Shown piece by piece: positions 3,718 through 64,000 of a stretch of DNA of 64,000 bases; within the stretch, counting starts at the first letter, position 1, and every line of letters begins with the position of its first letter. Below the pieces are notes generated by a model. That model ran no database searches. It was not told where the DNA came from and saw only the letters and a program-made list of their open reading frames with translations. Source of the DNA: an uncultured Candidatus Saccharibacteria bacterium (GTDB lineage Bacteria; Patescibacteriota; Minisyncoccia; Phycocordibacterales; CAIRYW01); assembly GCA_964386665.1 (NCBI GenBank), contig CAYLQP010000001.1, positions 48,111-112,110 on the forward strand. Direction: 5' to 3'. Position numbers and translations under genes: made by a program.

Positions 3718-6700
3718 ATGTCGAAAGTGAAACACCACACCCTCGCACATTCTTCAACACTTGGAGAATCTGCAAACACAAAGAATAAGAAGTATTTTGC
3801 GAAGTACAAAGAGCCTCTTGCACCACTTCCAAACTTAATTGAAGGTCAGTTGAATTCTTTTAAATGGCTTGTAAAAGCAGGTTTAAAAGAAGTGTTTGAT
3901 GAATATACTAAGATTGCGGACTATTCAGGAAAGAAATTTGAATTTTCTTTTGGGTCTTTTGAGCTTGGAACCCCTAAGTACGACGCTCGCTTTGCAATGG
4001 AAAACAAAATCAACTTTGAGGCTCCTCTTAAGGTGATGGTGAAGTTAAAGAACAAGATTCTTTCGACTGAAAAAGAACAAGAAGTGTTTCTTGCTGATTT
4101 CCCAGTTATGACTGAGAACGGAACATTTATCATCAATGGTATTGAGCGAGTAATTGTTCCACAGCTTGCGCGATCATTTGGAGTTTTCTTTACTTCAAGT
4201 GAATCAAAAGGAATAAACTTGTTTGGAGCAAAGGTGATTCCGGCACGAGGGGCATGGGTAGAGATTGAAACTGATTCCGATGGAGCGCTTTATGTTCGAA
4301 TCGATCGAAAGCGAAAATTCCCAGTTTCTCTTCTTCTTCGAGCGTTTGGGGCAAAAGATAACGAAGCGATGCTTAGTGCATTTAATGGAGAACCGCAAGC
4401 AAAGAAGTATATGGAAGCAACTCTTGCTAAAGATTCATTCAAAACAGCAGAAGAATCATTTATGGAAATCCATAAACGACTTCGAGATGGGGATCTTGCA
4501 AATGCAGACAATGCAAAAGAATTCGTAACAGGACTCTTTGATGGAGAGCGATACGACCTTTCTCCTGTTGGGCGACACCGATTCAATAAACGATTTAACA
4601 AAAGCATGGATCCAAAGGAGCTTGCACGTAAAACGCTTTCTTTGGACGATCTTAATACTATTATTATTCACTTGGCGCACCTTAACTCTGATGTTGATGC
4701 GATTCCAGATGATATTGACCACCTTGGAAGTAGACGAGTTCGATATGTTGGAGAACTTATCCAGCAAAAACTTCGTGTTGGTATGACACAAATCAAACGA
4801 AACATTCAAAACCGAATGTCGACTATTGATACTGATGCAACTCTTCCTGTGCAGTTTATTTCTCCACGACCGATGCAAGCTCGAATCAAAGAGTTCTTCA
4901 CAACCAACCAGCTTTCTCAGTTTATGCAACAAGAAAACGTGTTGACTGAGCTCGAGCATCTTCGAACAGTTTCAGCTCTTGGTCCTGGAGGACTTACTCG
5001 AGAACGAGCGGGACTTGAAGTGCGAGATGTGCACGCTTCTCACTACGGAAGAATTTGTCCAATCCATACTCCAGAAGGTCCAAACATTGGACTTGTGCTT
5101 CACCTTGCTTCATATGCAAAGATAAACGACTTTGGAATGATTGAAGCTCCATTTGCGAAAGTAAAGAATGGAAAAATCACAAAAGAGGTTGAATATATGA
5201 ACGCACTCGAAGAAGAAAACTATATTATCGCCCACGCGGGAACAAATTATGATAAATCTGGAAACATCGTTGGTGAAGTAGTAGAGGTTCGAGTGAAGGG
5301 TCGTCCGATGATGGTTGCCCGAGACCAAGTACAATATATCGACGTTGCAACTAACGAAGCATTCTCTATTGCAACTTCAATGATTCCATTCCTTAACCAC
5401 GATGAGGCAAACCGAGCATTGATGGCAAGTAATATGCAGAAACAAGCAACTCCTTGTGTGATTGCTGAGGCACCTCTTGTTGCAACTGGTGTTGAACGAC
5501 AAGCGGCAAACGATATTTGTCGAGTGATTCAAGCTACTGAAGATGGTGTGGTGACATATGTTGACGGAAAGAAAATCAAAGTTAAATACGGAAAAACAGA
5601 AACAGAATATTTGCTTTCTCAATTCTCTCGAACAAACCAATTTACTGCGTTCCATCAACGTCCACAAGTTCGTGTTGGAGATGAGGTGAAGGCGGGAACT
5701 GTACTTGCAGATGCATCAACAACTGTGAATGGTGAAATGGCGCTTGGGCAAAACTGTCTTGTTGCCTTTATGACATGGCAAGGTCAAAACTATGAAGATG
5801 CGATTGTGCTTTCTCAAAGACTTGTAAAAGATAGTAAATTTACTTCTATTCATATTGAAGAGTTTGTTGTAAACGTACGTGACACAAAACTAGGGCCTGA
5901 AATTACTACTCACGATATTCCAAACGTAGGAGAAAACAAACTCAAAAACCTTGATGAAGACGGAATCATCCGAATTGGTGCTGAAGTGCGTCCTGGAGAT
6001 ATCCTTGTTGGAAAAATTACTCCAAAAGGTGAAACTCAACTTACTCCAGAAGAAAGACTACTTCGATCTATCTTTGGTGAAAAATCTCGAGATGTAAAAG
6101 ATTCTTCAAAGAGAATGGAAAACGGAAAACGTGGACGAATTATTTCTGTAAAAGTATTTTCACGAGAAAAAGGAGATAAGCTCGAAAGTGGAATTATCAA
6201 GCGAATTCACATTGAAGTAGCGCAACTTCGAAACGTATCAGTGGGAGACAAACTTGCTGGACGACACGGAAACAAAGGAGTTATCTCTGTTGTACTTCCT
6301 GAAGAAGATATGCCATATATGCCAGATGGAACTCCAGTTGATGTAGTACTTACTCCGCTTGGTGTACCTTCACGTATGAACCTCGGACAGATTCTTGAAC
6401 TTCACCTCGGACTTGCAGCTCATTCACTTGATTATCAAGCGATTGTACCACCGTTTGCTGGAGCAACAGATGTTGAAATCAAGGATGAACTTAAGAAGGC
6501 TGGATTTAATGAAAACGGAAAGATGACGCTCTTTGATGGACGAACCGGAGAAGCGTTCGAGCAAGATATTTCTGTTGGATATATGTATATCTTGAAGCTT
6601 CATCACATGGTGGAAGACAAGATTCATATGCGATCAATTGGACCTTACTCTCTTATTACTCAACAACCACTTGGAGGAAAAGCTCAAGGTGGAGGACAGC

Positions 6701-6966
6701 GATTTGGAGAAATGGAAGTGTGGGCCCTGTTGGGACACGGTGTGGCATATATGCTTCGAGAAATGCTTACAGTAAAATCTGATGATATTGCGGGACGATC
6801 AGCAACGTTTGATTCTATTGTACGAGGAGAGCGAATCAAGGCACCAAACTCACCTGCATCATTTAATGTATTGCTTGCAAACATTAGAGGATTGGGACTT
6901 GATATTAGTTTAGATCGGTCGAATTCTATTAACGGAGAACAAGATGACGCACCTACAACTGTGTAG
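3718..6966 (+). CDS. rpoB: DNA-directed RNA polymerase subunit beta
   Basis: 1082 aa. Conserved RpoB blocks across the whole length. Shorter than E. coli RpoB (lineage-specific insertions absent). Confidence 0.97.
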   Translation: MSKVKHHTLAHSSTLGESANTKNKKYFAKYKEPLAPLPNLIEGQLNSFKWLVKAGLKEVFDEYTKIADYSGKKFEFSFGSFELGTPKYDARFAMENKINFEAPLKVMVKLKNKILSTEKEQEVFLADFPVMTENGTFIINGIERVIVPQLARSFGVFFTSSESKGINLFGAKVIPARGAWVEIETDSDGALYVRIDRKRKFPVSLLLRAFGAKDNEAMLSAFNGEPQAKKYMEATLAKDSFKTAEESFMEIHKRLRDGDLANADNAKEFVTGLFDGERYDLSPVGRHRFNKRFNKSMDPKELARKTLSLDDLNTIIIHLAHLNSDVDAIPDDIDHLGSRRVRYVGELIQQKLRVGMTQIKRNIQNRMSTIDTDATLPVQFISPRPMQARIKEFFTTNQLSQFMQQENVLTELEHLRTVSALGPGGLTRERAGLEVRDVHASHYGRICPIHTPEGPNIGLVLHLASYAKINDFGMIEAPFAKVKNGKITKEVEYMNALEEENYIIAHAGTNYDKSGNIVGEVVEVRVKGRPMMVARDQVQYIDVATNEAFSIATSMIPFLNHDEANRALMASNMQKQATPCVIAEAPLVATGVERQAANDICRVIQATEDGVVTYVDGKKIKVKYGKTETEYLLSQFSRTNQFTAFHQRPQVRVGDEVKAGTVLADASTTVNGEMALGQNCLVAFMTWQGQNYEDAIVLSQRLVKDSKFTSIHIEEFVVNVRDTKLGPEITTHDIPNVGENKLKNLDEDGIIRIGAEVRPGDILVGKITPKGETQLTPEERLLRSIFGEKSRDVKDSSKRMENGKRGRIISVKVFSREKGDKLESGIIKRIHIEVAQLRNVSVGDKLAGRHGNKGVISVVLPEEDMPYMPDGTPVDVVLTPLGVPSRMNLGQILELHLGLAAHSLDYQAIVPPFAGATDVEIKDELKKAGFNENGKMTLFDGRTGEAFEQDISVGYMYILKLHHMVEDKIHMRSIGPYSLITQQPLGGKAQGGGQRFGEMEVWALLGHGVAYMLREMLTVKSDDIAGRSATFDSIVRGERIKAPNSPASFNVLLANIRGLGLDISLDRSNSINGEQDDAPTTV

Positions 6967-7005
6967 TTTGTATCATCTATCTTTACATCTTTAATTTAAA
7001 ACACT

Positions 7006-10000
7006 ATGTATAAAAAAAGAGAAAGAAATCAATTTGATGAAATTTCAATCAAAGTTGCATCCCCTGATAGAATTCGAGAATGGTCATTTGGAGAAGTAAC
7101 AAAACCTGAGACGATGAACTATCGAACTCAGCGAAGTGAAAAGAACGGTCTGTTCGATGAAAAAATCTTTGGACCTGACAAAGACTTCGAATGTTACTGT
7201 GGAAAGTATAAAGGAATCCGATACAAAGGAATTATTTGTGAAAAATGTGGTGTTGAAATCACACGATCAGTTGTACGACGAGAAAGAATGGGGCATATTG
7301 AACTTGCAACTCCTGTTGCACATATATGGTTTCTTAGATCTATGCCTTCTCGAATCAGCCTTCTTCTTGGACTTCAATCAAGTGAAGTAGAAAAAGTAGT
7401 GTACTTTGCTGGGTATTTGATCACAAAGGTAAACGAAGGAGAACGAGAACGAGTGCTCAATGACTTGGATTCAGAATTTAAAGCAAAGATTAAAACAGTT
7501 ACTGATGACAAGACTAAAGATGCGATTCGAGATCTTCTTGTTACTACAAAAAATGAAATCGAAAGTATCAAAGCTGGAAAAGTACTTGATGAAGTAAAGT
7601 ATCACAAATTCTCAATTAAATACGGAACAATCTTTGAGGCGTCAATTGGAGCTGAGGCGATTTACAATATCTTCAAGACAATTGATCTCAAGAAGTTAAC
7701 AGAAACTCTTGAGGCAGACCTTGAAAAGGCAAGTTCACTTGATAAAGAAAAAATTAACAAACGACTTGGAATTGTAAAATCAATGCTTGAGTCTGGTATT
7801 CGACCTGAATGGATGTTTTTGACTGCGATTCCTGTGATTCCTGCAGCACTTCGTCCTATGGTTGCTCTTGATGGAGGACGTCACGCTACTTCAGATGTAA
7901 ACGATCTTTACCGACGAGTGATCAATCGAAACAACCGATTGAAGAAACTCAAAGAAATATTTGCACCAGATGTAATCCTTCGAAACGAAAAACGAATCTT
8001 GCAAGAAGCAGTTGATGCGCTTGTTGATAACTCTATTCGACACGGAAACGCTTCATTTGCAGGAGTAAATCAAGCACAACGACGACCGCTTAAATCGCTT
8101 GCTGATAACCTCAAAGGAAAACGAGGATTGTTTAGACAAAACCTTCTTGGAAAACGAGTAGACTACTCTGGACGATCGGTGATTGTAGTAGGTCCTGAAC
8201 TTGATCTTGCTGAATGTGGACTTCCAAAACATATGGCTCTTGAATTATTCAGACCGTTTGTAATTTCTCAAATTCTTGCAAAAGAGCTCGCGTATAACAT
8301 TCGAGGAGCATCAAAACTTATTGATGAAGGAATTCCTGAGGTATGGGCAATTCTTGAAAAAGTAATTCAAGGAAAATACGTTCTTCTTAACCGAGCACCA
8401 ACACTTCACCGACTAGGTATTCAAGCTTTCAAACCTATCCTTATTGAAGGAAATGCGATTCGAGTTCACCCACTTGTGTGTGCGGCGTTTAACGCGGACT
8501 TCGACGGAGACCAAATGGCGGTTCACGTACCTCTTTCTGAAGAAGCACAAACAGAAGCACGGGAGATTATGGCATCTGATAAAAACATCTTGAAACCAGG
8601 AAGTGGAAACCTTATTGCTTCAGTTGATCGACTCGATATGGTACTTGGATGTTTCTGGATGACATCAGTGATTGCAGGAGAAAAAGGAGAAGGAAAAATA
8701 TTTGGCTCTACTTCAGATGCGGTGCTTGCTCATTCATTTGGTGAACTTTCTTTCCGAGCAAAGATTACAGTTCTCCCTGGAGCGGAAGAGAAGTTTAAGG
8801 AATTTGAAGGAAAAGCGTTTGAAACTTCGCTTGGACGACTTCTCTTTAATGAACTCTTGCCAGAAGATTACACATTTATCAACAAAGAGGTGGATAAAAA
8901 AGTAATGGCAGGAATTATGTCTGAACTTACTTCTAAATACGGAATCGAAAAACTTCCAATCACTCTTGACCGAATCAAGAACTTTGGTTTCAAATACGCA
9001 ACAGTATCTGGAGTAACATGGGGAATTGATGATATTCAAGTGCCACAAGAAAAATACACAATCATTGACGGTGCAAAGAAAAAATCAGAAGAAGTAGTAA
9101 GTCAATATAACGATGGACTTCTTTCAGAAGATGAACGCAACCGAAAAAATATTGAAATCTGGCACGCAGTGAAAGCGCAAGTAGAAAAAACAGTTCTTGA
9201 AAGTCTTGATAAGCAAGGATCGGTGTATACAATGTGGAAATCTGGAGCTCGAGGATCTGCATCTCAAATTACGCAAATGGCAGGTATGAAAGGACTTATT
9301 CAAAACGCGACTGGAGAAACACTTGAACTTCCAATCCTTTCATCAACAAAAGAAGGATTTAACCCAATTGAATACTTCGTAAACACTCACGGTTCTCGAA
9401 AAGGTCTTACGGACACTGCCCTTAACACCGCAAAAGCTGGATACCTTACTCGACGACTCTTCGTATCTGCACAAGATGTGATTATCACAGAAATGGATTG
9501 TGGAACTAAAGAAGGTATTATGCTCCGAAAGGAAACTGCTTCTGGAATCGAAACTCCAATTTCAAAGATTGTGAAAGGGCGAGTATTGGCAACTGACGTA
9601 ACAACAAAAGATGGTTCTGTATTATTCAAGAAAAACCATATGCTTACAAACGAAGATGCACTTGCACTTGAAAAAGCTGGTGTAGAAGAAGCATTTGTTC
9701 GAAGTCCTTTGACTTGTAAAACACTTCGAGGAATGTGTGCACATTGTTACGGATTAGATCTTGGAAAAAACAAACTAATTGACTTGGGAGAAGCAGTGGG
9801 AACAGTTGCTGCTCAAGCGATTGGAGAACCTGGAACGCAGCTTACAATGAACACAAAGCACGCCGGAGGAGCATCGTCAGCTGGAGGAGACGTTACACAA
9901 GGACTTCCTCGAGTAGAAGAAGTATTTGAAAAACGAGCACCAAAAAATCCTGCTGCAGTTGCAACATATGATGGAGTTGTTACAGAAATTAAAGAAGAAG

Positions 10001-33418: not shown

Positions 33419-36400
33419 ATGAAACAAAAAATTATTAAATTTGGTTTATTTTTTTCGGTATCCGCCTGTCTTTTGTTGTTACTGTTTGTTTTTTCAAAAA
33501 AAGAACCTGTGTATGCGACTTGTTCACCTACATCTTTAACAGGAAGTCCTCAAGCCGCATCGTATGCAAATGGTAAGGTTTTTATCACTAGAGGAGTTAC
33601 AAAGCTCGTTACAAGTTTTGATGTTACTACTGATACCGCATCAACTACAAATGCCGTGCTTGCTCCACATAGTATGTTTTCACTCACACAAAACAATTTA
33701 GTCAAAGATGACAATATGTTCTTGTGGATGGATGATGGTAGTGGTGAAGGATATGCTGTTGTAAATACAATTACGGGTCAGATTGTTGCAACGTCTACAA
33801 ATACAAATTTCAACAACAGTAAAGATGGTATTGTGGTGGGAGATAAGTACTATCAGGTAGCCCGAAATAATACAAATAACCTTGGTGTTGTAAGTGCTGT
33901 GACAACAAATACATTATATTTCAGAACTGTTAGTGCAAACCCAGAAAAAATACTTTCAAATGCTGCTGGTACAAAACTGTACGTAATCTCATCAAGCTTA
34001 ACATCAGGAAAGGTTACTGTGGTTGATGCAACAACTGATACGGTAGGAGCTACTATTCCTGTAGGAGGAATTTTAACAAATACTTCACAGGGTGCCATAC
34101 TTGGTAATTATCTTTATGTGCCAAACTCAAACTCAAACACAGTTTCTATTATTGATCTTACGACTGAGGCCGTTGTAGCAACTACTACAGTTGGAGCAAC
34201 TCCAAAATACATATCAACTTCAGGAACAAAAGTATATATTGCAAGTACTGGAAACAATACTGTTTCTGTAATTGATCAGTCTATCTCTGTTTCAGCAGTA
34301 CAGACAAGTATTTCACTTACAAATACTCCTATTTTTATGATGTCGGTGGCTTCAAATTCAAAGATATATGTTTCGACTGGTTCGTTTGGTATTAAGGTGA
34401 TTAGTCCTTCAACAGATACTGTTACTAAAACAATTACTGGGGGTATTGGAGCGGTTAATTCTGCAACAGAAGCACCCAACGGAAAACTGTACACAGTGGC
34501 ATCTGCTTCCGGAATTATTTCTGTAATTGATACTGTGCTTGATACAAATTTATCAAATTGTGGAGATACTGCGGGAGCTGATATTGTTCCACCACAACTT
34601 GTTTCTTTTACTTCAACTACTGCAAACGCTGTATATGCAAATGGCTCAACAATAAATATTACCGCGACTTTCAACGAAGCTCTTGCGGTTGCTTCGACTA
34701 TGACTGTTTCACTTAATACTGGCGCAACAGTCGTATTAAACAGTGTGAGTGGTATGAGTTTATCAGGTACTTATACTGTAACTCCAGGACAAAACACATC
34801 TGACCTTACTGTCTCATCTATAGTTTCGCATCTTGTTAAGGATGCAGATGACAATACGACTGCAACGTATCTAGTACCTGCATCACCTAATAATATTGCG
34901 GACACTTCGAATATTATTGTTGATACAACACCACCTTCTAATTACAGTATATCGATCGATCCAACATCTCTTACTCCCACTGATTTTACTGACCCTGTTT
35001 TCACGTTTTCGGCAATTGACTCTTCGGGTGGGATTACATACGCTCTTTCATTAAATGGAGGTGGGTTCTCAACAACCACAAGTCCTTTTAGTGCCACTGG
35101 GATTGATTCTACCGTCGTAAACACACTCATTATACAAGCTTGTGATGTTGCTGCTAACTGTTCTACATACACTTCATATTTTTATCCAGCAATTATCATA
35201 CATCCATCTGCTGTCACTTCTAGTTCAACAATTTCTGTTACGTTTGATATTATTGAACCTAGTACAAGTGCGTTTAATTTACAAATTGCAGATGCCTATC
35301 TCGATGGTATTCTCACATCAATTACGTGCGAACCTGTTATAAATGGTACTTCAAAAACATCAACCTGTACGTTAGTGGGTGGTATCCCAGCTCCATCAGA
35401 TCATTCAAATGATGGAACCCATACACTTGTTGTTTCTGCAACAAGTACAGCGTCAGTTTTAGGAAGAGCTTCACAAGGTTTTACTATTGATACTATTTCT
35501 CCTTCAATTACTTCAGTAACTACATCAGTTGCAAACGGTTCGTATATACTTGGCAATAGTATACCAATTACAATTGCACTTGATGAACCTGTTGTAAATG
35601 GATCACAAGTAACTCTTACATTTGATACGGGAAAAACTCTTACTTTTACGTGTGCAACTTCAACCTGTACTTCATTGACTGCTACTTATGTGGTTGGCGC
35701 AAATGAAGATACAGATGATCTTACGGTAAGTTCTCTTTCGGGAGCGACTTTGGCAGATGTGGTTGGAAATGCAAGTAGCAGTCCTATGATTCCTGACGGA
35801 TCTAATCTTGGTGATTTGTCTACAATTTCTATTGATACTCTACCTTCTTCAACTCTCGGTATGCCTGATCTTACTACTGCAACAGATAGTGGAATTTCTA
35901 CCACTGATAATTTTACAGGGGTGGATAATGTTGAACTCACAGGTGTTTGTATTGATGGTGATACTGTTGAGTTATTTAAAGATGGGGTTTTGGATCAGAC
36001 AGTTGTATGTACAAGTTCAGCTTATTCTTTTTTCTCACTTCTTCCAACAGAGGGCTCTTATGACTTTAAAGTACGTGCGATTGATCCACAAAATAACACA
36101 TCAAGTTTTTCTGCGTCCTTGGTTGTCACTTATGACATAAGTGCCCCAACTCTTTCATCATTAACTTCTACTACTGCAGATGGAAGATATAGTTCTGGTT
36201 CGAATATTAATATTACTGCTACTTTCAGTGAACAGATTAGTACAGGTTCAACAATGTCGGTTACTTTAGATACAGGAGATGTTATTGTTCTTTCAAATAT
36301 TTCTGGAAATACCCTTACAGGAACATACAGTGTAAGTGAAGAAGATTCATCTCTTGATCTTACTGTCATTTCAATTGTTTCAGTGAACGTAACTAATCTT

Positions 36401-37189
36401 GCACTAAACACTGCCACAACCTATGCGCTTCCTGTTGCACCAAACAATATTGCAGATTCATCTCAGATTGTTATCTTTATAAATACATCTTCAAGAAGCG
36501 GGGGAAGTAGACCAAAAAATAATAATCCTGTTCCAGCTACACTACCAGTAAACTTTGTAAGTTCATCTACTAATCCTATGCCACAGAATCCAAATAATTT
36601 TGGATTAAATCCAGTTGCTTGTGAAAACTACATTAAGTCATATATACGACTTGGTGCAAATAATGATGTAGAAGACGTAAAAAAACTTGAGACATTTCTA
36701 AATACATATGAAGGAATGAAATTGCCTGTAGATGGAGTATTTAGTAAAGCAGATGAAGATGCGGTAAGAATTTTTCAAGAGCGTTATACTGAAGTGCTTA
36801 GTTTTTGGAACCTCTTAAAACCAACCGGGTATGTATATATTAGTACTCAAAAAGCGATCAACAGGATTTACTGTGAGAAGACTCATAATATGACTTGTCC
36901 TTACTTTTTTGATTTTGCAAAGCAGGGAGATCAGGGTGTTGGAGTTACAAAAATAAAAGCGTTCTTGAATAATACTCAAAACGAGAAATTATCTTTGACA
37001 GATAAATTTGATACTGAGACAACCCAGGCTGTGATTCGATTCCAATCAAAATTCAAAGATAGGGTGCTCACTCCTTGGAAACTTGCTCAACCTACTGGAC
37101 TCTGGTATCAATCAACACGGAAAAAGGCGAATGATGTTATTGGGTGCTTTGCACCACAGAGATTAGATAATGGTGTAATTTTGGATTAA
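33419..37189 (+). CDS. large cell-surface protein: signal/TM segment, YVTN-type beta-propeller repeats, three Ig-like repeat modules, two C-terminal peptidoglycan-binding (PG_binding_1-like) domains
   Basis: 1256 aa, T/S/N-rich. Has repeated ..KLYV/..VSVIDL beta-propeller blades. There are three ~100-aa modules (ANAVYANGSTINITATFNEA... / ANGSYILGNSIPITIALDEP... / ADGRYSSGSNINITATFSEQ...). The C-terminus has two ..LQ..L....DG.F...T..AV..FQ repeats. Confidence 0.8.
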   Translation: MKQKIIKFGLFFSVSACLLLLLFVFSKKEPVYATCSPTSLTGSPQAASYANGKVFITRGVTKLVTSFDVTTDTASTTNAVLAPHSMFSLTQNNLVKDDNMFLWMDDGSGEGYAVVNTITGQIVATSTNTNFNNSKDGIVVGDKYYQVARNNTNNLGVVSAVTTNTLYFRTVSANPEKILSNAAGTKLYVISSSLTSGKVTVVDATTDTVGATIPVGGILTNTSQGAILGNYLYVPNSNSNTVSIIDLTTEAVVATTTVGATPKYISTSGTKVYIASTGNNTVSVIDQSISVSAVQTSISLTNTPIFMMSVASNSKIYVSTGSFGIKVISPSTDTVTKTITGGIGAVNSATEAPNGKLYTVASASGIISVIDTVLDTNLSNCGDTAGADIVPPQLVSFTSTTANAVYANGSTINITATFNEALAVASTMTVSLNTGATVVLNSVSGMSLSGTYTVTPGQNTSDLTVSSIVSHLVKDADDNTTATYLVPASPNNIADTSNIIVDTTPPSNYSISIDPTSLTPTDFTDPVFTFSAIDSSGGITYALSLNGGGFSTTTSPFSATGIDSTVVNTLIIQACDVAANCSTYTSYFYPAIIIHPSAVTSSSTISVTFDIIEPSTSAFNLQIADAYLDGILTSITCEPVINGTSKTSTCTLVGGIPAPSDHSNDGTHTLVVSATSTASVLGRASQGFTIDTISPSITSVTTSVANGSYILGNSIPITIALDEPVVNGSQVTLTFDTGKTLTFTCATSTCTSLTATYVVGANEDTDDLTVSSLSGATLADVVGNASSSPMIPDGSNLGDLSTISIDTLPSSTLGMPDLTTATDSGISTTDNFTGVDNVELTGVCIDGDTVELFKDGVLDQTVVCTSSAYSFFSLLPTEGSYDFKVRAIDPQNNTSSFSASLVVTYDISAPTLSSLTSTTADGRYSSGSNINITATFSEQISTGSTMSVTLDTGDVIVLSNISGNTLTGTYSVSEEDSSLDLTVISIVSVNVTNLALNTATTYALPVAPNNIADSSQIVIFINTSSRSGGSRPKNNNPVPATLPVNFVSSSTNPMPQNPNNFGLNPVACENYIKSYIRLGANNDVEDVKKLETFLNTYEGMKLPVDGVFSKADEDAVRIFQERYTEVLSFWNLLKPTGYVYISTQKAINRIYCEKTHNMTCPYFFDFAKQGDQGVGVTKIKAFLNNTQNEKLSLTDKFDTETTQAVIRFQSKFKDRVLTPWKLAQPTGLWYQSTRKKANDVIGCFAPQRLDNGVILD

Positions 37190-47810: not shown

Positions 47811-48320
47811 TTAGTTTTGTGATTTAGATATCTCTGCGAGTGCTTCAGTAGCTATCTTTGCTTCAACTTCTGGTGTTACGTATTTACCAATAGTTTTTTC
47901 AATTCCAACAGACACGAGAGTAGAAATCTCTTTTTTGATATCTTTGTAGAGGATTTCTCGTTCCTCTTCGAGTTTCTTTTTGGTTTCTGTGATCAGTTTT
48001 TCAGCCTCAAAGCTTGCTTGTGCGTGAAGTTTATCAGATGACTCTTTAGCAGCCTTTTGAGATGCTTCGAGCATTTTTTGACCTTCTTCTCGTGCTTCTT
48101 TGAGAATCTGTTCTTTGCTTGCTTCGATTTCTGCGAGTCTTTTGCTTATGTTTGCTCCTGCGGTGTCTGATTCTTCTTGTTTTTTTACTCGTGCATCAAG
48201 AGAGATAATTGCTGGTTTAATAGCAAATTTATACAACACAAAAGCGACGATAGAAAAGTTAACTACCTGCGCTAAAAGTGAGTGCCAGTGAACACCAAGT
48301 GAAGAGAGGATCTCTGACAT
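47811..48320 (-). CDS. atpF: Fo ATP synthase b subunit
   Basis: One N-terminal TM helix followed by a long charged coiled coil. Confidence 0.8.
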   Translation of the reverse strand: MSEILSSLGVHWHSLLAQVVNFSIVAFVLYKFAIKPAIISLDARVKKQEESDTAGANISKRLAEIEASKEQILKEAREEGQKMLEASQKAAKESSDKLHAQASFEAEKLITETKKKLEEEREILYKDIKKEISTLVSVGIEKTIGKYVTPEVEAKIATEALAEISKSQN

Positions 48321-60546: not shown

Positions 60547-60930
60547 ATGGATTTGAATAATCTGAAAGATACGGTGACCGAAAAAGTAAAAAGCAATTAC
60601 AAGCCAAACACCGCAAAGAAAAAAGTTCTTCTCGGAGTAATCGTAGTCTTGCTTGGAGCACTTGGTCTTGAAATGACAAACAATGACTTCGATGTAAACA
60701 AACTTATTGAGACGGGGTCATTATCAGAGTCGAGAGTGATGCGAGATAAGGCTGGAAACGTGGTTACCGAAGGAGGGAAGTTCGAAGATGAATATAACTG
60801 TGCGGATTTTGAAACACAAAGTGAAGCTCAAAATTTCTTTGAAAAGGCTGGGGGAGTTACAAAAGATTTCAACCGACTTGATGGAAACAAAGATGGGCAA
60901 GCTTGTGAGAGTTTGAAAAAAGGGAATTAG
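60547..60930 (+). CDS. membrane-anchored Excalibur (calcium-binding) domain protein
   Basis: N-terminal TM helix. C-terminal CADFETQSEAQNFFEKAGG...LDGNKDGQACE matches the Excalibur C.DF.....AQ...DRD.DG.ACE signature. Confidence 0.65.
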   Translation: MDLNNLKDTVTEKVKSNYKPNTAKKKVLLGVIVVLLGALGLEMTNNDFDVNKLIETGSLSESRVMRDKAGNVVTEGGKFEDEYNCADFETQSEAQNFFEKAGGVTKDFNRLDGNKDGQACESLKKGN

Positions 60931-61108: not shown

Positions 61109-61723
61109 ATGATTTTCTTTCCTTCACAATATTCTTTTACACTTACATCAAAAAAATCGTTACATAAACGAGATGCGTCTTTGGTTGTTGCAAATAGTAT
61201 TGGGGAAGATACTCAAGGTGTTGATAACAATCGTCGAATGTTCTTCAAAGCTGCTTCTGTGGCAGGGCTTGGGCTTGTTGCGACCGCAGTCCTTCCGAAA
61301 TCTGCTAGTGCCTATATTGCCGGAGGAGCACCAACTTCAAATGTGGTAGGAGTAAAGGATGATGCGAACAATCGAATCAATCCTGCAACAGAGGAAACAG
61401 TCGCAGCGCTTCTTACTGGACAGGGTGTTACAAAACTTTCAATTAGTTTATCTTCTTCTGGGATCGTTCGTACTCCTGCTTCAGGAAAAAAGATTAGAGT
61501 ATATGCATCTCGATTTTCTCTCACTGCAGATGCGACATCTGTTTCGTTTCGTTTTACTGCTGGTGGAACTGATCACGAGAAATACGTATCACCTAAGACA
61601 GGTGGGCTTTATGGTGCAAACAATCATCCCAACTTCATTGAAGGAGGGGTTGATGAAGTGTTATACTGTGTGATAGCTGGAACAACGACCGTTCAAATTA
61701 ATATTGATTATTTAGAAGTTTAA
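61109..61723 (+). CDS. hypothetical secreted protein with twin-arginine-like signal (NRRMFFKAASVAGLGLVATAVLPKSASA)
   Basis: 204 aa. The RR motif is followed by a hydrophobic h-region and an ASA cleavage site. The mature part is T/S/G/A-rich. Confidence 0.5.
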   Translation: MIFFPSQYSFTLTSKKSLHKRDASLVVANSIGEDTQGVDNNRRMFFKAASVAGLGLVATAVLPKSASAYIAGGAPTSNVVGVKDDANNRINPATEETVAALLTGQGVTKLSISLSSSGIVRTPASGKKIRVYASRFSLTADATSVSFRFTAGGTDHEKYVSPKTGGLYGANNHPNFIEGGVDEVLYCVIAGTTTVQINIDYLEV

Positions 61724-61734
61724 TTTAAAGGATT

Positions 61735-64000
61735 ATGGCAAAACGAGTTACAGAGCATTTGTTCACAGGAGGAACAAGACACTATACAATCTATGATTCA
61801 ACAAAGACTACTTTGGGTTCTTTGATAAATCAATATACTGGAGCAGCTGCAACAGACAAATTTGCCGGTCCAATAAAAATTGGTGTTGCAAGACCAAACG
61901 AAACTTCAACAGCTATTCCGAGTACTTACCCCCACGCTTTTCGTTGGGCTGATAAAAAAGGTTTTTATTCAACAGGAACAGTTTCTGTTGCAGAAACTGT
62001 TGTAACTGGGTCTGGGACAGGTTGGCTTACTGATGGGGTGCCAATTGATGCTCGAATCGGATTCGGGACAACAGATCCTGAAGCAGTGACTACCTGGTAT
62101 TCTATCTCTGCAATTGCTTCTAATACATCTATTACACTTCAAACTTCTGCAGGAACAATCGCGGGAGGTACATCCTTTGTTATCAACAAAGAACGTCGGA
62201 TTGACTGGGTGTTCCTTGCTGATATAGCAACCGCAGCAACGACACGACGTACAAGCTTTTTTGAATTTGATCGAGATACGTCTGTCTTTACCTGGAAAGG
62301 ATTTATTACAACTACATTTCCATCTGCAACTAACCACACTATCGTTGGGATGCGGGCCGTGTATCAAACATATACAACAGGAACAGTTGGTGTTTCGACA
62401 GCGACTGTAACTGGTTCAGGAACCACGTGGTCTGCAAGTCGGATATTTATAGGTTCTCGAATTGGATTTGGTTCAACTGATCCTACCCAAATCTCTCAGT
62501 GGTATTATGTAAACGCTGTTGGATCAGATACCTCAATTACGATTCAAGTAAACCCAACAGCTTCAGGAACAGGAGGAACAGCAGCCAGTATAACAGTTAC
62601 AGCTGGTACGGCTTATGTGATTGAAGATTTGCGAATTTTACACGCAACCACAAACGCGACTGCTACAAACGGAGGGTTGTTTATGACTGGTGCGGTTTCT
62701 TATGCTGATTTTACAACTACAGGAACAACAATCGCTGCTGCAGCAACAACTGACAAAGTAAAAGCGTGTTACTGGCTTGCAGATGCGTCAACTGTTACTA
62801 ACGATGTGGCATCTGGTCTTGCTGTTGATGATCGTGATAGTTGGACACAACAGTATTGTTATATTATTGAGCGTCAGGCTGCAACTACTCCTGCTGTATA
62901 TAAATATAATTTTAGAGCGGCACTTACTTTGACAGCAGGAAAGGCAACAAACGCTTTTGTACTTGCAACAGGGATCCAAACAGTGACTGGTAACGTCTCT
63001 CAAACAAATAATGGCCGAATCGGAATCCTTGCTCACGGTCCAGGTTCTGGTATCAAATCTCTCTATTTTGCAACAACTACTCGTGTATATAGAGCGGCTC
63101 TTACTAACATTACAAGTGGTAATACCTCTTGGGTATCTGATGCAATGGTTGAAGTTCCTGCAGGAGGCACTGCAACTTATGGTGCTTCATCTGTGCTTAC
63201 ATCTGTAGAAGTTGCTGATCAGGTTGATCGTCTTATTATTACAACAACTGGTGCTGCAACTGCGCCAGGATCAAACAGAGCTCATATTACTCAATACAAC
63301 ACCACATCAAATCCGTTTGATCATCCATTTCTTGTTGATTCTCGACAAATTGATCAAAGTACTGCTGATTCAAGTTCGGTGCCTCATCCACAAACACAAG
63401 GAGGTATTATAAACGTCTGGTCAGAAGATGGACTTGCGTATCTTGCTCGTACAGGTACGTTATCTACAACAAACATTCTTTATGCAGTGCCTCTTGGAGC
63501 TGATTGGAATTATGCTGATGGAACTGTGAAGCAAAGATTATATACACCAGCATTAAGTACTCCAGATGCAACCAAGTTTTCTCGTGTGTATGTGAGCAAC
63601 CAATCATATCTTGGAGAAGATAATCTCACATTTCCAACAGAACCTTATCGGATTTATTATCGAACAGCAGGAATATCAGATGACTCAGGTAGTTGGACGC
63701 TTATCGATGCAACAGGAGATCTTTCAAGTGCTGTTGCAGCCACAGAAATTCAGTTTGCAATTGAGTTTCGAACGGCAGGAACATTTTGTTTGCCAAGTCG
63801 TATTTATAATATCGGATGTATTTATGAAGACGATACAACTGATAGTCACTATCAACCATCGGTTGCTCAATCAAATATTACAAGTAAATATTTTGCGTGG
63901 AGGTTCTCAACTGCCTTTGGAGGAACAGTGCCAACACTACGAATACGACTGTATAACGCAGTGAGTGGAGGACTCCTTCTTGATGATACAACAACAGCTT
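61735..64000 (+). CDS. large T/G/A-rich repeat protein, 5' partial (continues past the window end); absent from the supplied ORF track
   Basis: Frame 1 is open from the ATG at 61735 (preceded by an AAGGA RBS) to the end of the window, at least 755 aa. Internal ~70-aa repeats are present (GTVSVAETVVTGSGTGWL...RIGFGTTDPEAVTTWY / GTVGVSTATVTGSGTTWS...RIGFGSTDPTQISQWY). Confidence 0.6.
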   Translation, partial: MAKRVTEHLFTGGTRHYTIYDSTKTTLGSLINQYTGAAATDKFAGPIKIGVARPNETSTAIPSTYPHAFRWADKKGFYSTGTVSVAETVVTGSGTGWLTDGVPIDARIGFGTTDPEAVTTWYSISAIASNTSITLQTSAGTIAGGTSFVINKERRIDWVFLADIATAATTRRTSFFEFDRDTSVFTWKGFITTTFPSATNHTIVGMRAVYQTYTTGTVGVSTATVTGSGTTWSASRIFIGSRIGFGSTDPTQISQWYYVNAVGSDTSITIQVNPTASGTGGTAASITVTAGTAYVIEDLRILHATTNATATNGGLFMTGAVSYADFTTTGTTIAAAATTDKVKACYWLADASTVTNDVASGLAVDDRDSWTQQYCYIIERQAATTPAVYKYNFRAALTLTAGKATNAFVLATGIQTVTGNVSQTNNGRIGILAHGPGSGIKSLYFATTTRVYRAALTNITSGNTSWVSDAMVEVPAGGTATYGASSVLTSVEVADQVDRLIITTTGAATAPGSNRAHITQYNTTSNPFDHPFLVDSRQIDQSTADSSSVPHPQTQGGIINVWSEDGLAYLARTGTLSTTNILYAVPLGADWNYADGTVKQRLYTPALSTPDATKFSRVYVSNQSYLGEDNLTFPTEPYRIYYRTAGISDDSGSWTLIDATGDLSSAVAATEIQFAIEFRTAGTFCLPSRIYNIGCIYEDDTTDSHYQPSVAQSNITSKYFAWRFSTAFGGTVPTLRIRLYNAVSGGLLLDDTTTA

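Follow-up and report, generated by a model that had tools for sequence, protein, structure and literature searches.

What is a long, threonine-rich gene with phage relatives doing among the housekeeping genes of an uncultured bacterium, and could its product reach the cell surface? We addressed this question for a stretch of 64,000 nucleotides (the window; positions 48,111 to 112,110 of contig CAYLQP010000001.1, GenBank assembly GCA_964386665.1, filed as an uncultured Candidatus Saccharibacteria bacterium), which ends inside the gene concerned, here called gene B. Gene B was found to be the second gene of a cassette with the order A, B, C, D, tatC, tatA, all on one strand. It is near-certain that gene B is related to phage virion proteins, and near-certain too that it belongs to a conserved cellular operon of Patescibacteria. 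Gene A, directly upstream, encodes a protein with a likely signal for the twin-arginine translocation (Tat) system. We propose that a phage virion module was captured by the cell, that B may leave the cytoplasm by hitchhiking on the Tat signal borne by A, and that it may act at the surface; taken as a whole, we regard this chain of events as evenly poised between right and wrong.

Gene B and its chromosomal cassette

An earlier note on this DNA, made from the window alone, had described a frame open for at least 755 amino acids and running off the window end, and had named a mis-read stop or a frameshift in the complete sequence as what would undo that description. Re-translation of frame 1 from the ATG at 61735 to position 64000 gave 755 sense codons and zero stops, while the other two forward frames contained 22 and 52 stops. 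The full-length protein was retrieved by homolog search (P0001, 806 aa, 100% identical), and a contig of ~14 kb from the same locus (L001) carried the gene on to its stop codon, 51 codons past the window end. Gene B is therefore neither a pseudogene nor frameshifted, and the description stood. The 755 residues in the window are rich in Thr, Ala, Gly and Ser (T 16.4%, A 11.4%, G 8.7%, S 8.6%; together ~45%), as had been reported. The statement that Cys is absent had to be corrected, since four Cys are present at residues 345, 375, 685 and 695. The complete protein is acidic (85.8 kDa, pI 5.6), all-beta and without a signal peptide; its N-terminus (MAKRVTEHLFTGG) is hydrophilic, with a predicted beta strand from residue 2.

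The presence of at least two copies of a repeat module, also claimed in the note, was borne out by local alignment of residues ~77-160 with ~212-300 (BLOSUM62 score 188 as compared to 39 +/- 6.7 in 500 shuffles, z = 22; 39 identities in 88 columns), with a module length of ~80 aa. A third copy of the module is inserted in the 886-aa relatives of B, and residues 76-150, the region of module 1, consist of 99% gaps in 112 distant relatives. The AAGGA motif that had been taken as a good ribosome-binding site is present, but its spacer to the ATG of B is short (only 2 nt). The stop codon of A (61721-61723) lies 11 nt upstream of the same ATG, a distance that suggests tight coupling of A and B.

Secretion components had been sought beyond the window end, and these were found directly downstream of B. 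In L001 (11741-13707) the last 51 codons of B are followed by C (224 aa), D (63 aa), tatC and two tatA genes, with intergenic gaps of 0-21 nt along the cassette; one or two tatA copies are present per cassette. Protein C has a conserved head of ~100 aa and a low-complexity tail rich in Ser, Thr, Pro and Glu, and D is an acidic protein of ~60 aa. Neither C nor D has a signal peptide, and profile searches of both against PDB sequences gave noise only. The cassette TatC was assigned by PF00902 and TIGR00945 (E 3e-31) and TatA by PF02416 and TIGR01411 (E 3e-14), the scores for TIGR00945 and TIGR01411 being slightly under the equivalog cut-offs, as expected for divergent Patescibacteria.

We compared 76 Patescibacteria loci from species-representative genomes. 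All of A, C, D, TatC and TatA were found around B within the fetched flanks in 60 of them, and those short of the full set were mostly cut by contig ends; tatC followed B on its own strand in 65 of 72 loci. The ~5-kb cassette recurs at different chromosomal sites in dozens of Patescibacteria species, and its flanks elsewhere include RuvABC, TyrRS and a penicillin-binding protein (L002), rpoC, dnaG and sigma-70 (L004) and IF3, L35 and L20 (L005). Upstream of the locus studied here are genes for CysRS, an HlyD/FtsX/ABC exporter, MscL, DedA and a nucleotidyltransferase-family protein, and the window as a whole is ordinary chromosome with rpoB, rpoC, dnaG, ribonucleotide reductase, gatB, uvrA-like and ATP synthase genes. 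Phage structural genes, which the note had proposed to look for, do not flank this copy; its neighbours are housekeeping genes. Because the cassette recurs between different housekeeping genes, gene B does not lie in a prophage. The cassette is under purifying selection, with a nonsynonymous divergence (dN) of ~0.2 and saturated synonymous divergence (dS), the dN/dS of 0.15 coming from a single estimable pair. A promoter and terminator scan of the cassette was uninformative, with fewer promoter-like sites than in shuffled sequence.

In some genomes two or three tandem B paralogs were observed between a single A and C-D-tatC (L005, L065-L070 and L076-L078; those in L069, 3894-13987, measure 877, 807 and 944 aa), which shows local expansion of the family. 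The cassette is shared by records titled 'uncultured Gammaproteobacteria' or 'Candidatus Saccharibacteria' and by Parcubacteria, Paceibacterota, Nomurabacteria and Adlerbacteria (mixed titles in L011, L015, L021, L032, L045, L048, L076 and L083, as well as many 'Saccharibacteria'), and automatic organism labels look unreliable here. Overall, the record names place the operon in the Parcubacteria/Paceibacteria lineage.

Phage relatives and predicted fold of B

More than 1,668 homologs of B at 55-90% identity were found, unnamed and from Parcubacteria/Paceibacteria-type assemblies. An exhaustive HMMER search with B gave 411 clusters at 50% identity, mostly of 700-720 aa and without the first repeat module. 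No match was obtained for B in Pfam or PHROG (E <= 1) or in NCBIfam, and a profile search against PDB sequences found no relative, with noise only. Outside Patescibacteria, relatives of ~700 aa with 40-51% identity were located at eight loci that lack A, C and tat genes (from Roseomonas, Polaromonas, Lysinibacter, Armatimonadota, Planctomycetaceae and Dependentiae). The Roseomonas relative comes after baseplate J/I (wedge), tail-fibre and tail-fibre-assembly genes, and the Lysinibacter relative lies amid phage-like structural genes. The Armatimonadota relative adjoins HNH endonucleases and a minor tail protein, and in Polaromonas (L068, 3421-11843) the gene stands between portal and fused protease-major-capsid genes. 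IMG/VR viral contigs contained 164 further relatives at 40-53% identity. Among these, L105 (3832-12432) likewise has its copy between portal and fused protease-major-capsid genes, L091 has it after a collagen-like tail fibre, and in L107 it lies a few genes past a weak holin-like match and ahead of an endolysin gene.

The relatives thus occur in the head module in L068 and L105 and in the tail-fibre/lysis region in other phages, so that their place in the virion is unsettled. Just upstream of the B relative in L105 a 570-aa protein (6223-7935) resembled DUF6385 (E 0.007) and a phage scaffold family, in both cases weakly and below threshold.

Neighbours of B were counted by profile searches of all open reading frames (ORFs) in 80 viral loci. 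TatC or TatA was found in none of the 80, a C-head-like ORF adjoined B in 28, and a D-like ORF stood just after B in 14. The Armatimonadota and Planctomycetaceae loci, too, have D-like ORFs after B, and a C-head-like segment precedes it in Roseomonas. Viral contigs L107, L111 and L112 have homologs of the A domain immediately before B that lack a signal, the phage A of L107 being 126 aa long with no signal peptide. In a neighbour-joining tree of B the non-Tat (viral and prophage) sequences were basal and interleaved, and the Tat-linked sequences formed the derived bulk; the tree is rough, and the direction of transfer is inferred. The derived features of the Patescibacteria version are the extra ~80-aa module copy or copies in B, the Tat signal on A, the low-complexity tail on C and the linkage to tatC-tatA.

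The Roseomonas and Lysinibacter relatives also matched the first ~75-85 positions of the tail-fibre profiles PHROG 1591 and 1980 (E 1.8e-6 and 2.4e-8), one small module being common to them, whereas protein B of the window itself matches no PHROG. By coordinates, without alignment, the stretch of these relatives that weakly matches the N-terminus of PHROG 1591 ('tail fiber protein') appears to correspond to module 2 of B. In Pfam (E <= 1) no S-layer or cell-wall anchoring domain (SLH, CWB2 and similar) was found in B. The note had left the choice between an S-layer protein or adhesin and a prophage tail-fibre-like protein. The phage relationship was upheld by the prophage relatives, the 164 IMG/VR stretches and tailspike fold matches; the placement of this copy in a prophage was not, and the S-layer suggestion gained no domain match.

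Structure prediction, which the note had advised, gave a confident all-beta model of B (AlphaFold2 with 36 homologs; predicted local distance difference test (pLDDT) 82, predicted template modelling score (pTM) 0.79). The model argues for a compact multi-domain beta protein and not for a long trimeric fibre. The best PDB matches of the model were the endosialidase tailspikes of phages K1F and phi92 (Foldseek probability 1.00, E ~5e-6), followed by integrin-type beta-propellers, and the best matches in BFVD were uncharacterised tailed-phage proteins and the K1E tailspike. The part of B likely to be behind these predicted beta-propeller and tailspike matches is the region from residue ~300 onward. 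Conservation was even and strong along the chain, both in Patescibacteria and in the distant sets. The 47 positions kept at >=93% in 229 sequences were mostly Gly, Trp, Tyr, Phe and Pro, with D340 and D498 as the only acidic residues and no recognisable catalytic set; R242, I243, G244, F245, G246, W256 and Y257 of module 2 are among the positions kept at this level.

B is like the endosialidase tailspikes of coliphages K1F, K1E and phi92 (PDB 1v0e, 3ju4 and 4hiz) in being large, all-beta and multi-domain, and its relatives occur in phage structural modules. It differs from them in its ~10% identity, in the lack of a PDB sequence match and of a recognisable conserved catalytic set, and in being chromosomal and Tat-linked. 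With regard to GH58 and the sialidase fold, B matches no family model, and its conserved residues are mainly structural.

The signal on A and the proposed export of B

The Tat-signal protein that the note had seen upstream of B is gene A, and its signal could be traced in the reading frame. The motif N-R-R-M-F-F-K (residues 41-47, 61229-61249) is followed by a moderately hydrophobic h-region, AASVAGLGLVATAVL, and by A66-S-A68 as a putative signal-peptidase I site. When the strict motif RRxF[LFIVM]K was used, gene A was the only such ORF in the window. Homologs of A (n=594) are all unnamed. The motif [KR]R-x-F-[LIMF]-K was present in 119 of 120 homologs, with KR in 99 and RR in 20, the latter including gene A here, and AxA was found within 35 residues past the motif in 114 of the 119. 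P63, A66 and A68 are invariant in 31 sequences, and the mature domain (14.2 kDa) is nearly invariant among homologs. Lys-Arg variants occur in natural Tat signals. The signal on A is likely to be a Tat signal because its motif is conserved, KR is a natural variant, and tatC and tatA are in the same operon. The structure model of A was of low confidence (pLDDT 48), and a profile search of A against PDB sequences gave noise only. A conserved YSF motif in the ~40-aa n-region of A homologs could be a chaperone docking site.

We propose that a phage virion module was captured and turned into a cellular export system, in which the phage-type domain of A would have gained a Tat signal and the module would have become joined to tatC-tatA. 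B would fold in the cytoplasm, possibly aided by C and/or D as fibre-assembly-type partners; C and D, which are companions of B in phages, may be assembly partners or parts of the A:B complex. Folded B would then bind A, and the ~100-kDa A:B complex would cross the membrane as a hitchhiker through the operon's own TatAC, after which signal peptidase would cleave A after AxA. B has no signal peptide of its own, and the signal-bearing A is conserved directly upstream of it in the cassettes. At ~100 kDa (B 85.8 plus mature A 14.2), such a complex would fall inside the size range of Tat cargo complexes already known. Once exported, B as a compact, spike-like protein would act at the surface, where it would bind a conserved glycan or other envelope component, either on a partner cell or on the producing cell itself. 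The parts of this proposal differ in strength. Export of B, as judged from the sequences and gene order, might equally well be true or false; a surface location is plausible, and a specific surface role is a weaker claim. Of the surface roles, envelope or glycan binding would be the most likely, with enzymatic (depolymerase) or lattice roles as alternatives. More doubtful, and offered tentatively, is the wider view that one ultra-small, probably host-dependent lineage captured the spike module and that its dedicated TatAC delivers folded B to the surface for contact with partner cells.

Several findings weigh against the proposed export and surface action of B. The contact between A and B and the exit of B from the cytoplasm are inferred steps, and no anchoring device that would retain B at the surface after cleavage of A is evident. 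In phages A is not a universal partner, as an A-domain ORF was found directly before B in 4 of the 80 viral loci. The signal on A is unusually long (68 aa), its homologs have KR more commonly than RR, and it scored 13.3 bits with the TIGR01409 TAT_signal_seq model, under the cut-off of 16.7 (E 0.085). The fold matches of B have TM-scores of 0.2-0.3 with ~10% identity, and what they have in common with B is a beta-propeller-type architecture only, not a function. B has no variable tip in either the Patescibacteria or the distant set, unlike typical receptor-binding proteins that track diverse hosts. In addition, tblastn of B and the Roseomonas relative against 50,697 cultured-phage records found none, and no family member has been studied experimentally because cultured-phage genomes hold no relative.

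These points have to be weighed together with what other explanations would achieve. If A were the only Tat substrate, then B, C and D would remain intracellular, unless lysis or some other route released them, and would form a module of phage origin that works within the cell, for example as an anti-phage decoy or another kind of assembly; tat would be in the operon since A is its main client. The absence of signal peptides from B, C and D would fit this, as would the fact that most phage relatives of B have no A partner and that no evidence of A:B contact was obtained. However, A stands directly before B in essentially every complete Patescibacteria cassette and likewise in 4 of 4 viral loci with an A-like gene, and the 0-21 nt gaps and fixed order A-B-C-D-tatC-tatA also speak against it. 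B is moreover acidic, all-beta and rich in Thr, Ser and Gly, with a tailspike-like fold, as is typical of extracellular proteins, and it is difficult to see why a homolog of virion spikes would work in the cytoplasm. We therefore consider export of A alone unlikely, although still worth some weight. A prophage explanation, in which gene B would simply encode the tail fibre of a prophage, resident or decayed, can draw on the family members found in prophages of Roseomonas, Polaromonas, Lysinibacter and an Armatimonadota genome. It conflicts with the core-chromosome window with no phage genes flanking gene B, with the occurrence of the cassette at different chromosomal sites in dozens of species and with the purifying selection, and we give it next to no credence; for this locus a prophage origin was ruled out by the housekeeping flanks.

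Other explanations accept export of B and differ in what it would do outside. As a lattice-forming envelope protein of S-layer type, and not a binding protein, B would be expected to show the uniform strong conservation without a variable tip, the acidic pI, few Cys and Thr/Ser-rich composition, and the widespread cassette in one lineage that we observed, and one report describes S-layers as common among Patescibacteria (bioRxiv 10.1101/2024.05.28.596244). But neither an S-layer nor an anchoring domain was found in B, S-layer proteins normally leave the cell through Sec by a signal of their own, which B lacks, its relatives are virion proteins of phages from unrelated hosts, and some genomes carry the two or three tandem paralogs; we regard a lattice role as improbable. 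A secreted glycan-cleaving enzyme (tailspike-type depolymerase) that opens the envelope of a host or prey cell would agree with the endosialidase tailspikes as best solved-structure matches and with the Asp-box-like hairpins SDDSGSW and STNDGGAW legible in the sequence of B. This has to be set against the low TM-scores and identity given above, the lack of a match to any glycosidase family model, and the 47 conserved positions, which are mostly Gly, Trp, Tyr, Phe and Pro and whose acidic members, D340 and D498 only, form no recognisable catalytic set. An enzyme role was consequently kept as a minor rival, with a slim chance of being correct. A long trimeric fibre was likewise judged unlikely, the monomer model being compact and confident.

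The hydrogenase small and large subunits HybO and HybC and the dimethyl sulfoxide (DMSO) reductase subunits DmsA and DmsB of E. coli are examples of Tat hitchhiking. Hitchhiking is established for some Tat substrates (PMC10924467). As in the cassette, the partners of these E. coli examples are encoded by adjacent genes, of which one has a twin-arginine-type signal and the larger one has none, with small accessory genes in the operon. The known cargo consists of cofactor-containing redox enzymes, whereas B is a phage-derived beta protein in which no cofactor motif was detected. The cassette also differs in having the translocase genes in the same operon, and in that export of B is a proposal. 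Tailocins and R-pyocins, extracellular contractile injection systems and gene transfer agents are, like the cassette, phage virion genes fixed in chromosomes under selection for a cellular function. They retain sheath, tube, baseplate or capsid genes and release by lysis, whereas what the cassette has kept is a single spike-type protein and its two or three small partners, with a link to a membrane translocase.

Full-text searches, whose coverage is incomplete and which therefore cannot prove absence, found no description of the B family or of the cassette. TatA and TatC have been noted in Paceibacteria, with no clients named (PMC9166423), and no client assigned to the Tat system of Parcubacteria/Paceibacteria was found in the literature searched. 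A phage spike-like protein and Tat co-export are each of a kind already known; what appears to be new is that they are combined, and that the capture is by a cell. Parcubacteria/Paceibacteria are among the most abundant uncultivated bacteria of groundwater, and little has been established about the way they assemble their surface and make contact with other cells. The cassette offers a concrete candidate for a Tat client and a large, strongly conserved protein tied to that client. B represents an unnamed family, common in uncultivated phages, for which Pfam, PHROG and NCBIfam have no model. If the hitchhiking is true, Tat co-export would extend from cofactor enzymes to a virus-derived structural protein. 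If the wider view holds as well, the cassette would be the first Tat hitchhiker system whose cargo is virus-derived and not a redox protein, and a new kind of phage-gene domestication.

Feature positions and neighbouring genes

The features of genes A and B in the window are listed in Table 1.

Table 1. Coordinates in the window of genes A and B and of their parts
Feature	Coordinates	Strand	Remarks
Gene A	61109..61723	+	204 aa; long Tat-type signal peptide and 136-aa (14 kDa) conserved beta-rich domain; opens the cassette
Predicted Tat signal peptide of A (residues 1-68)	61109..61312	+	~40-aa n-region with YSF motif; N-R-R-M-F-F-K; h-region AASVAGLGLVATAVL; A-S-A
AAGGA ribosome-binding motif	61728..61732	+	2 nt ahead of B start
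Gene B	61735..64000	+	Codons 1-755 of 806; phage virion (tail-fibre/spike-region) proteins are relatives
B N-terminal region (~residues 1-75)	61735..61959	+	Kept in Patescibacteria and phage-type relatives; 27-35% identity to query in the ~700-aa group, few gaps
B repeat module 1 (~residues 77-152)	61963..62190	+	YSTGTVSV...VTGSGTGW...RIGFGTTDP...WY...SITLQ; extra copy, not in ~700-aa phage-type relatives
B repeat module 2 (~residues 212-297)	62368..62625	+	Ancestral copy; conservation across the family is highest at its G-x-R-I-G-F-G and W-Y motifs
B core and C-terminal beta region (~residues 300-755; protein end 806)	62632..64000	+	Boundaries approximate; from secondary structure, pLDDT and fold matches

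A variant layout of the cassette was observed in L045 and L048, where a protein of ~280 aa is encoded after B and D on the opposite strand (8327-9163 (-) and 8318-9178 (-), respectively). This protein has several hydrophobic segments, an internal RR/KR-x-F-F-K-L-L-A-G-A-G motif and a different C-terminal domain, and tatC and tatA are located upstream on the opposite strand, so that these loci have a different Tat-motif partner.

Directly 5' of the cassette the window encodes a 127-aa protein (60547-60930, +) that has a hydrophobic segment at its N-terminus and matches the Excalibur calcium-binding domain (E 2e-5); it is not a cassette member in any other genome examined. Elsewhere in the window an ORF of 1,256 aa (33419-37189, +) has a C-terminal PG_binding_1 domain (residues 1173-1212) as its sole family match and is another candidate for a large surface protein. 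Highly expressed extracellular proteins with peptidoglycan-binding domains have been reported for archaea-parasitising Paceibacteria (PMC10936435).

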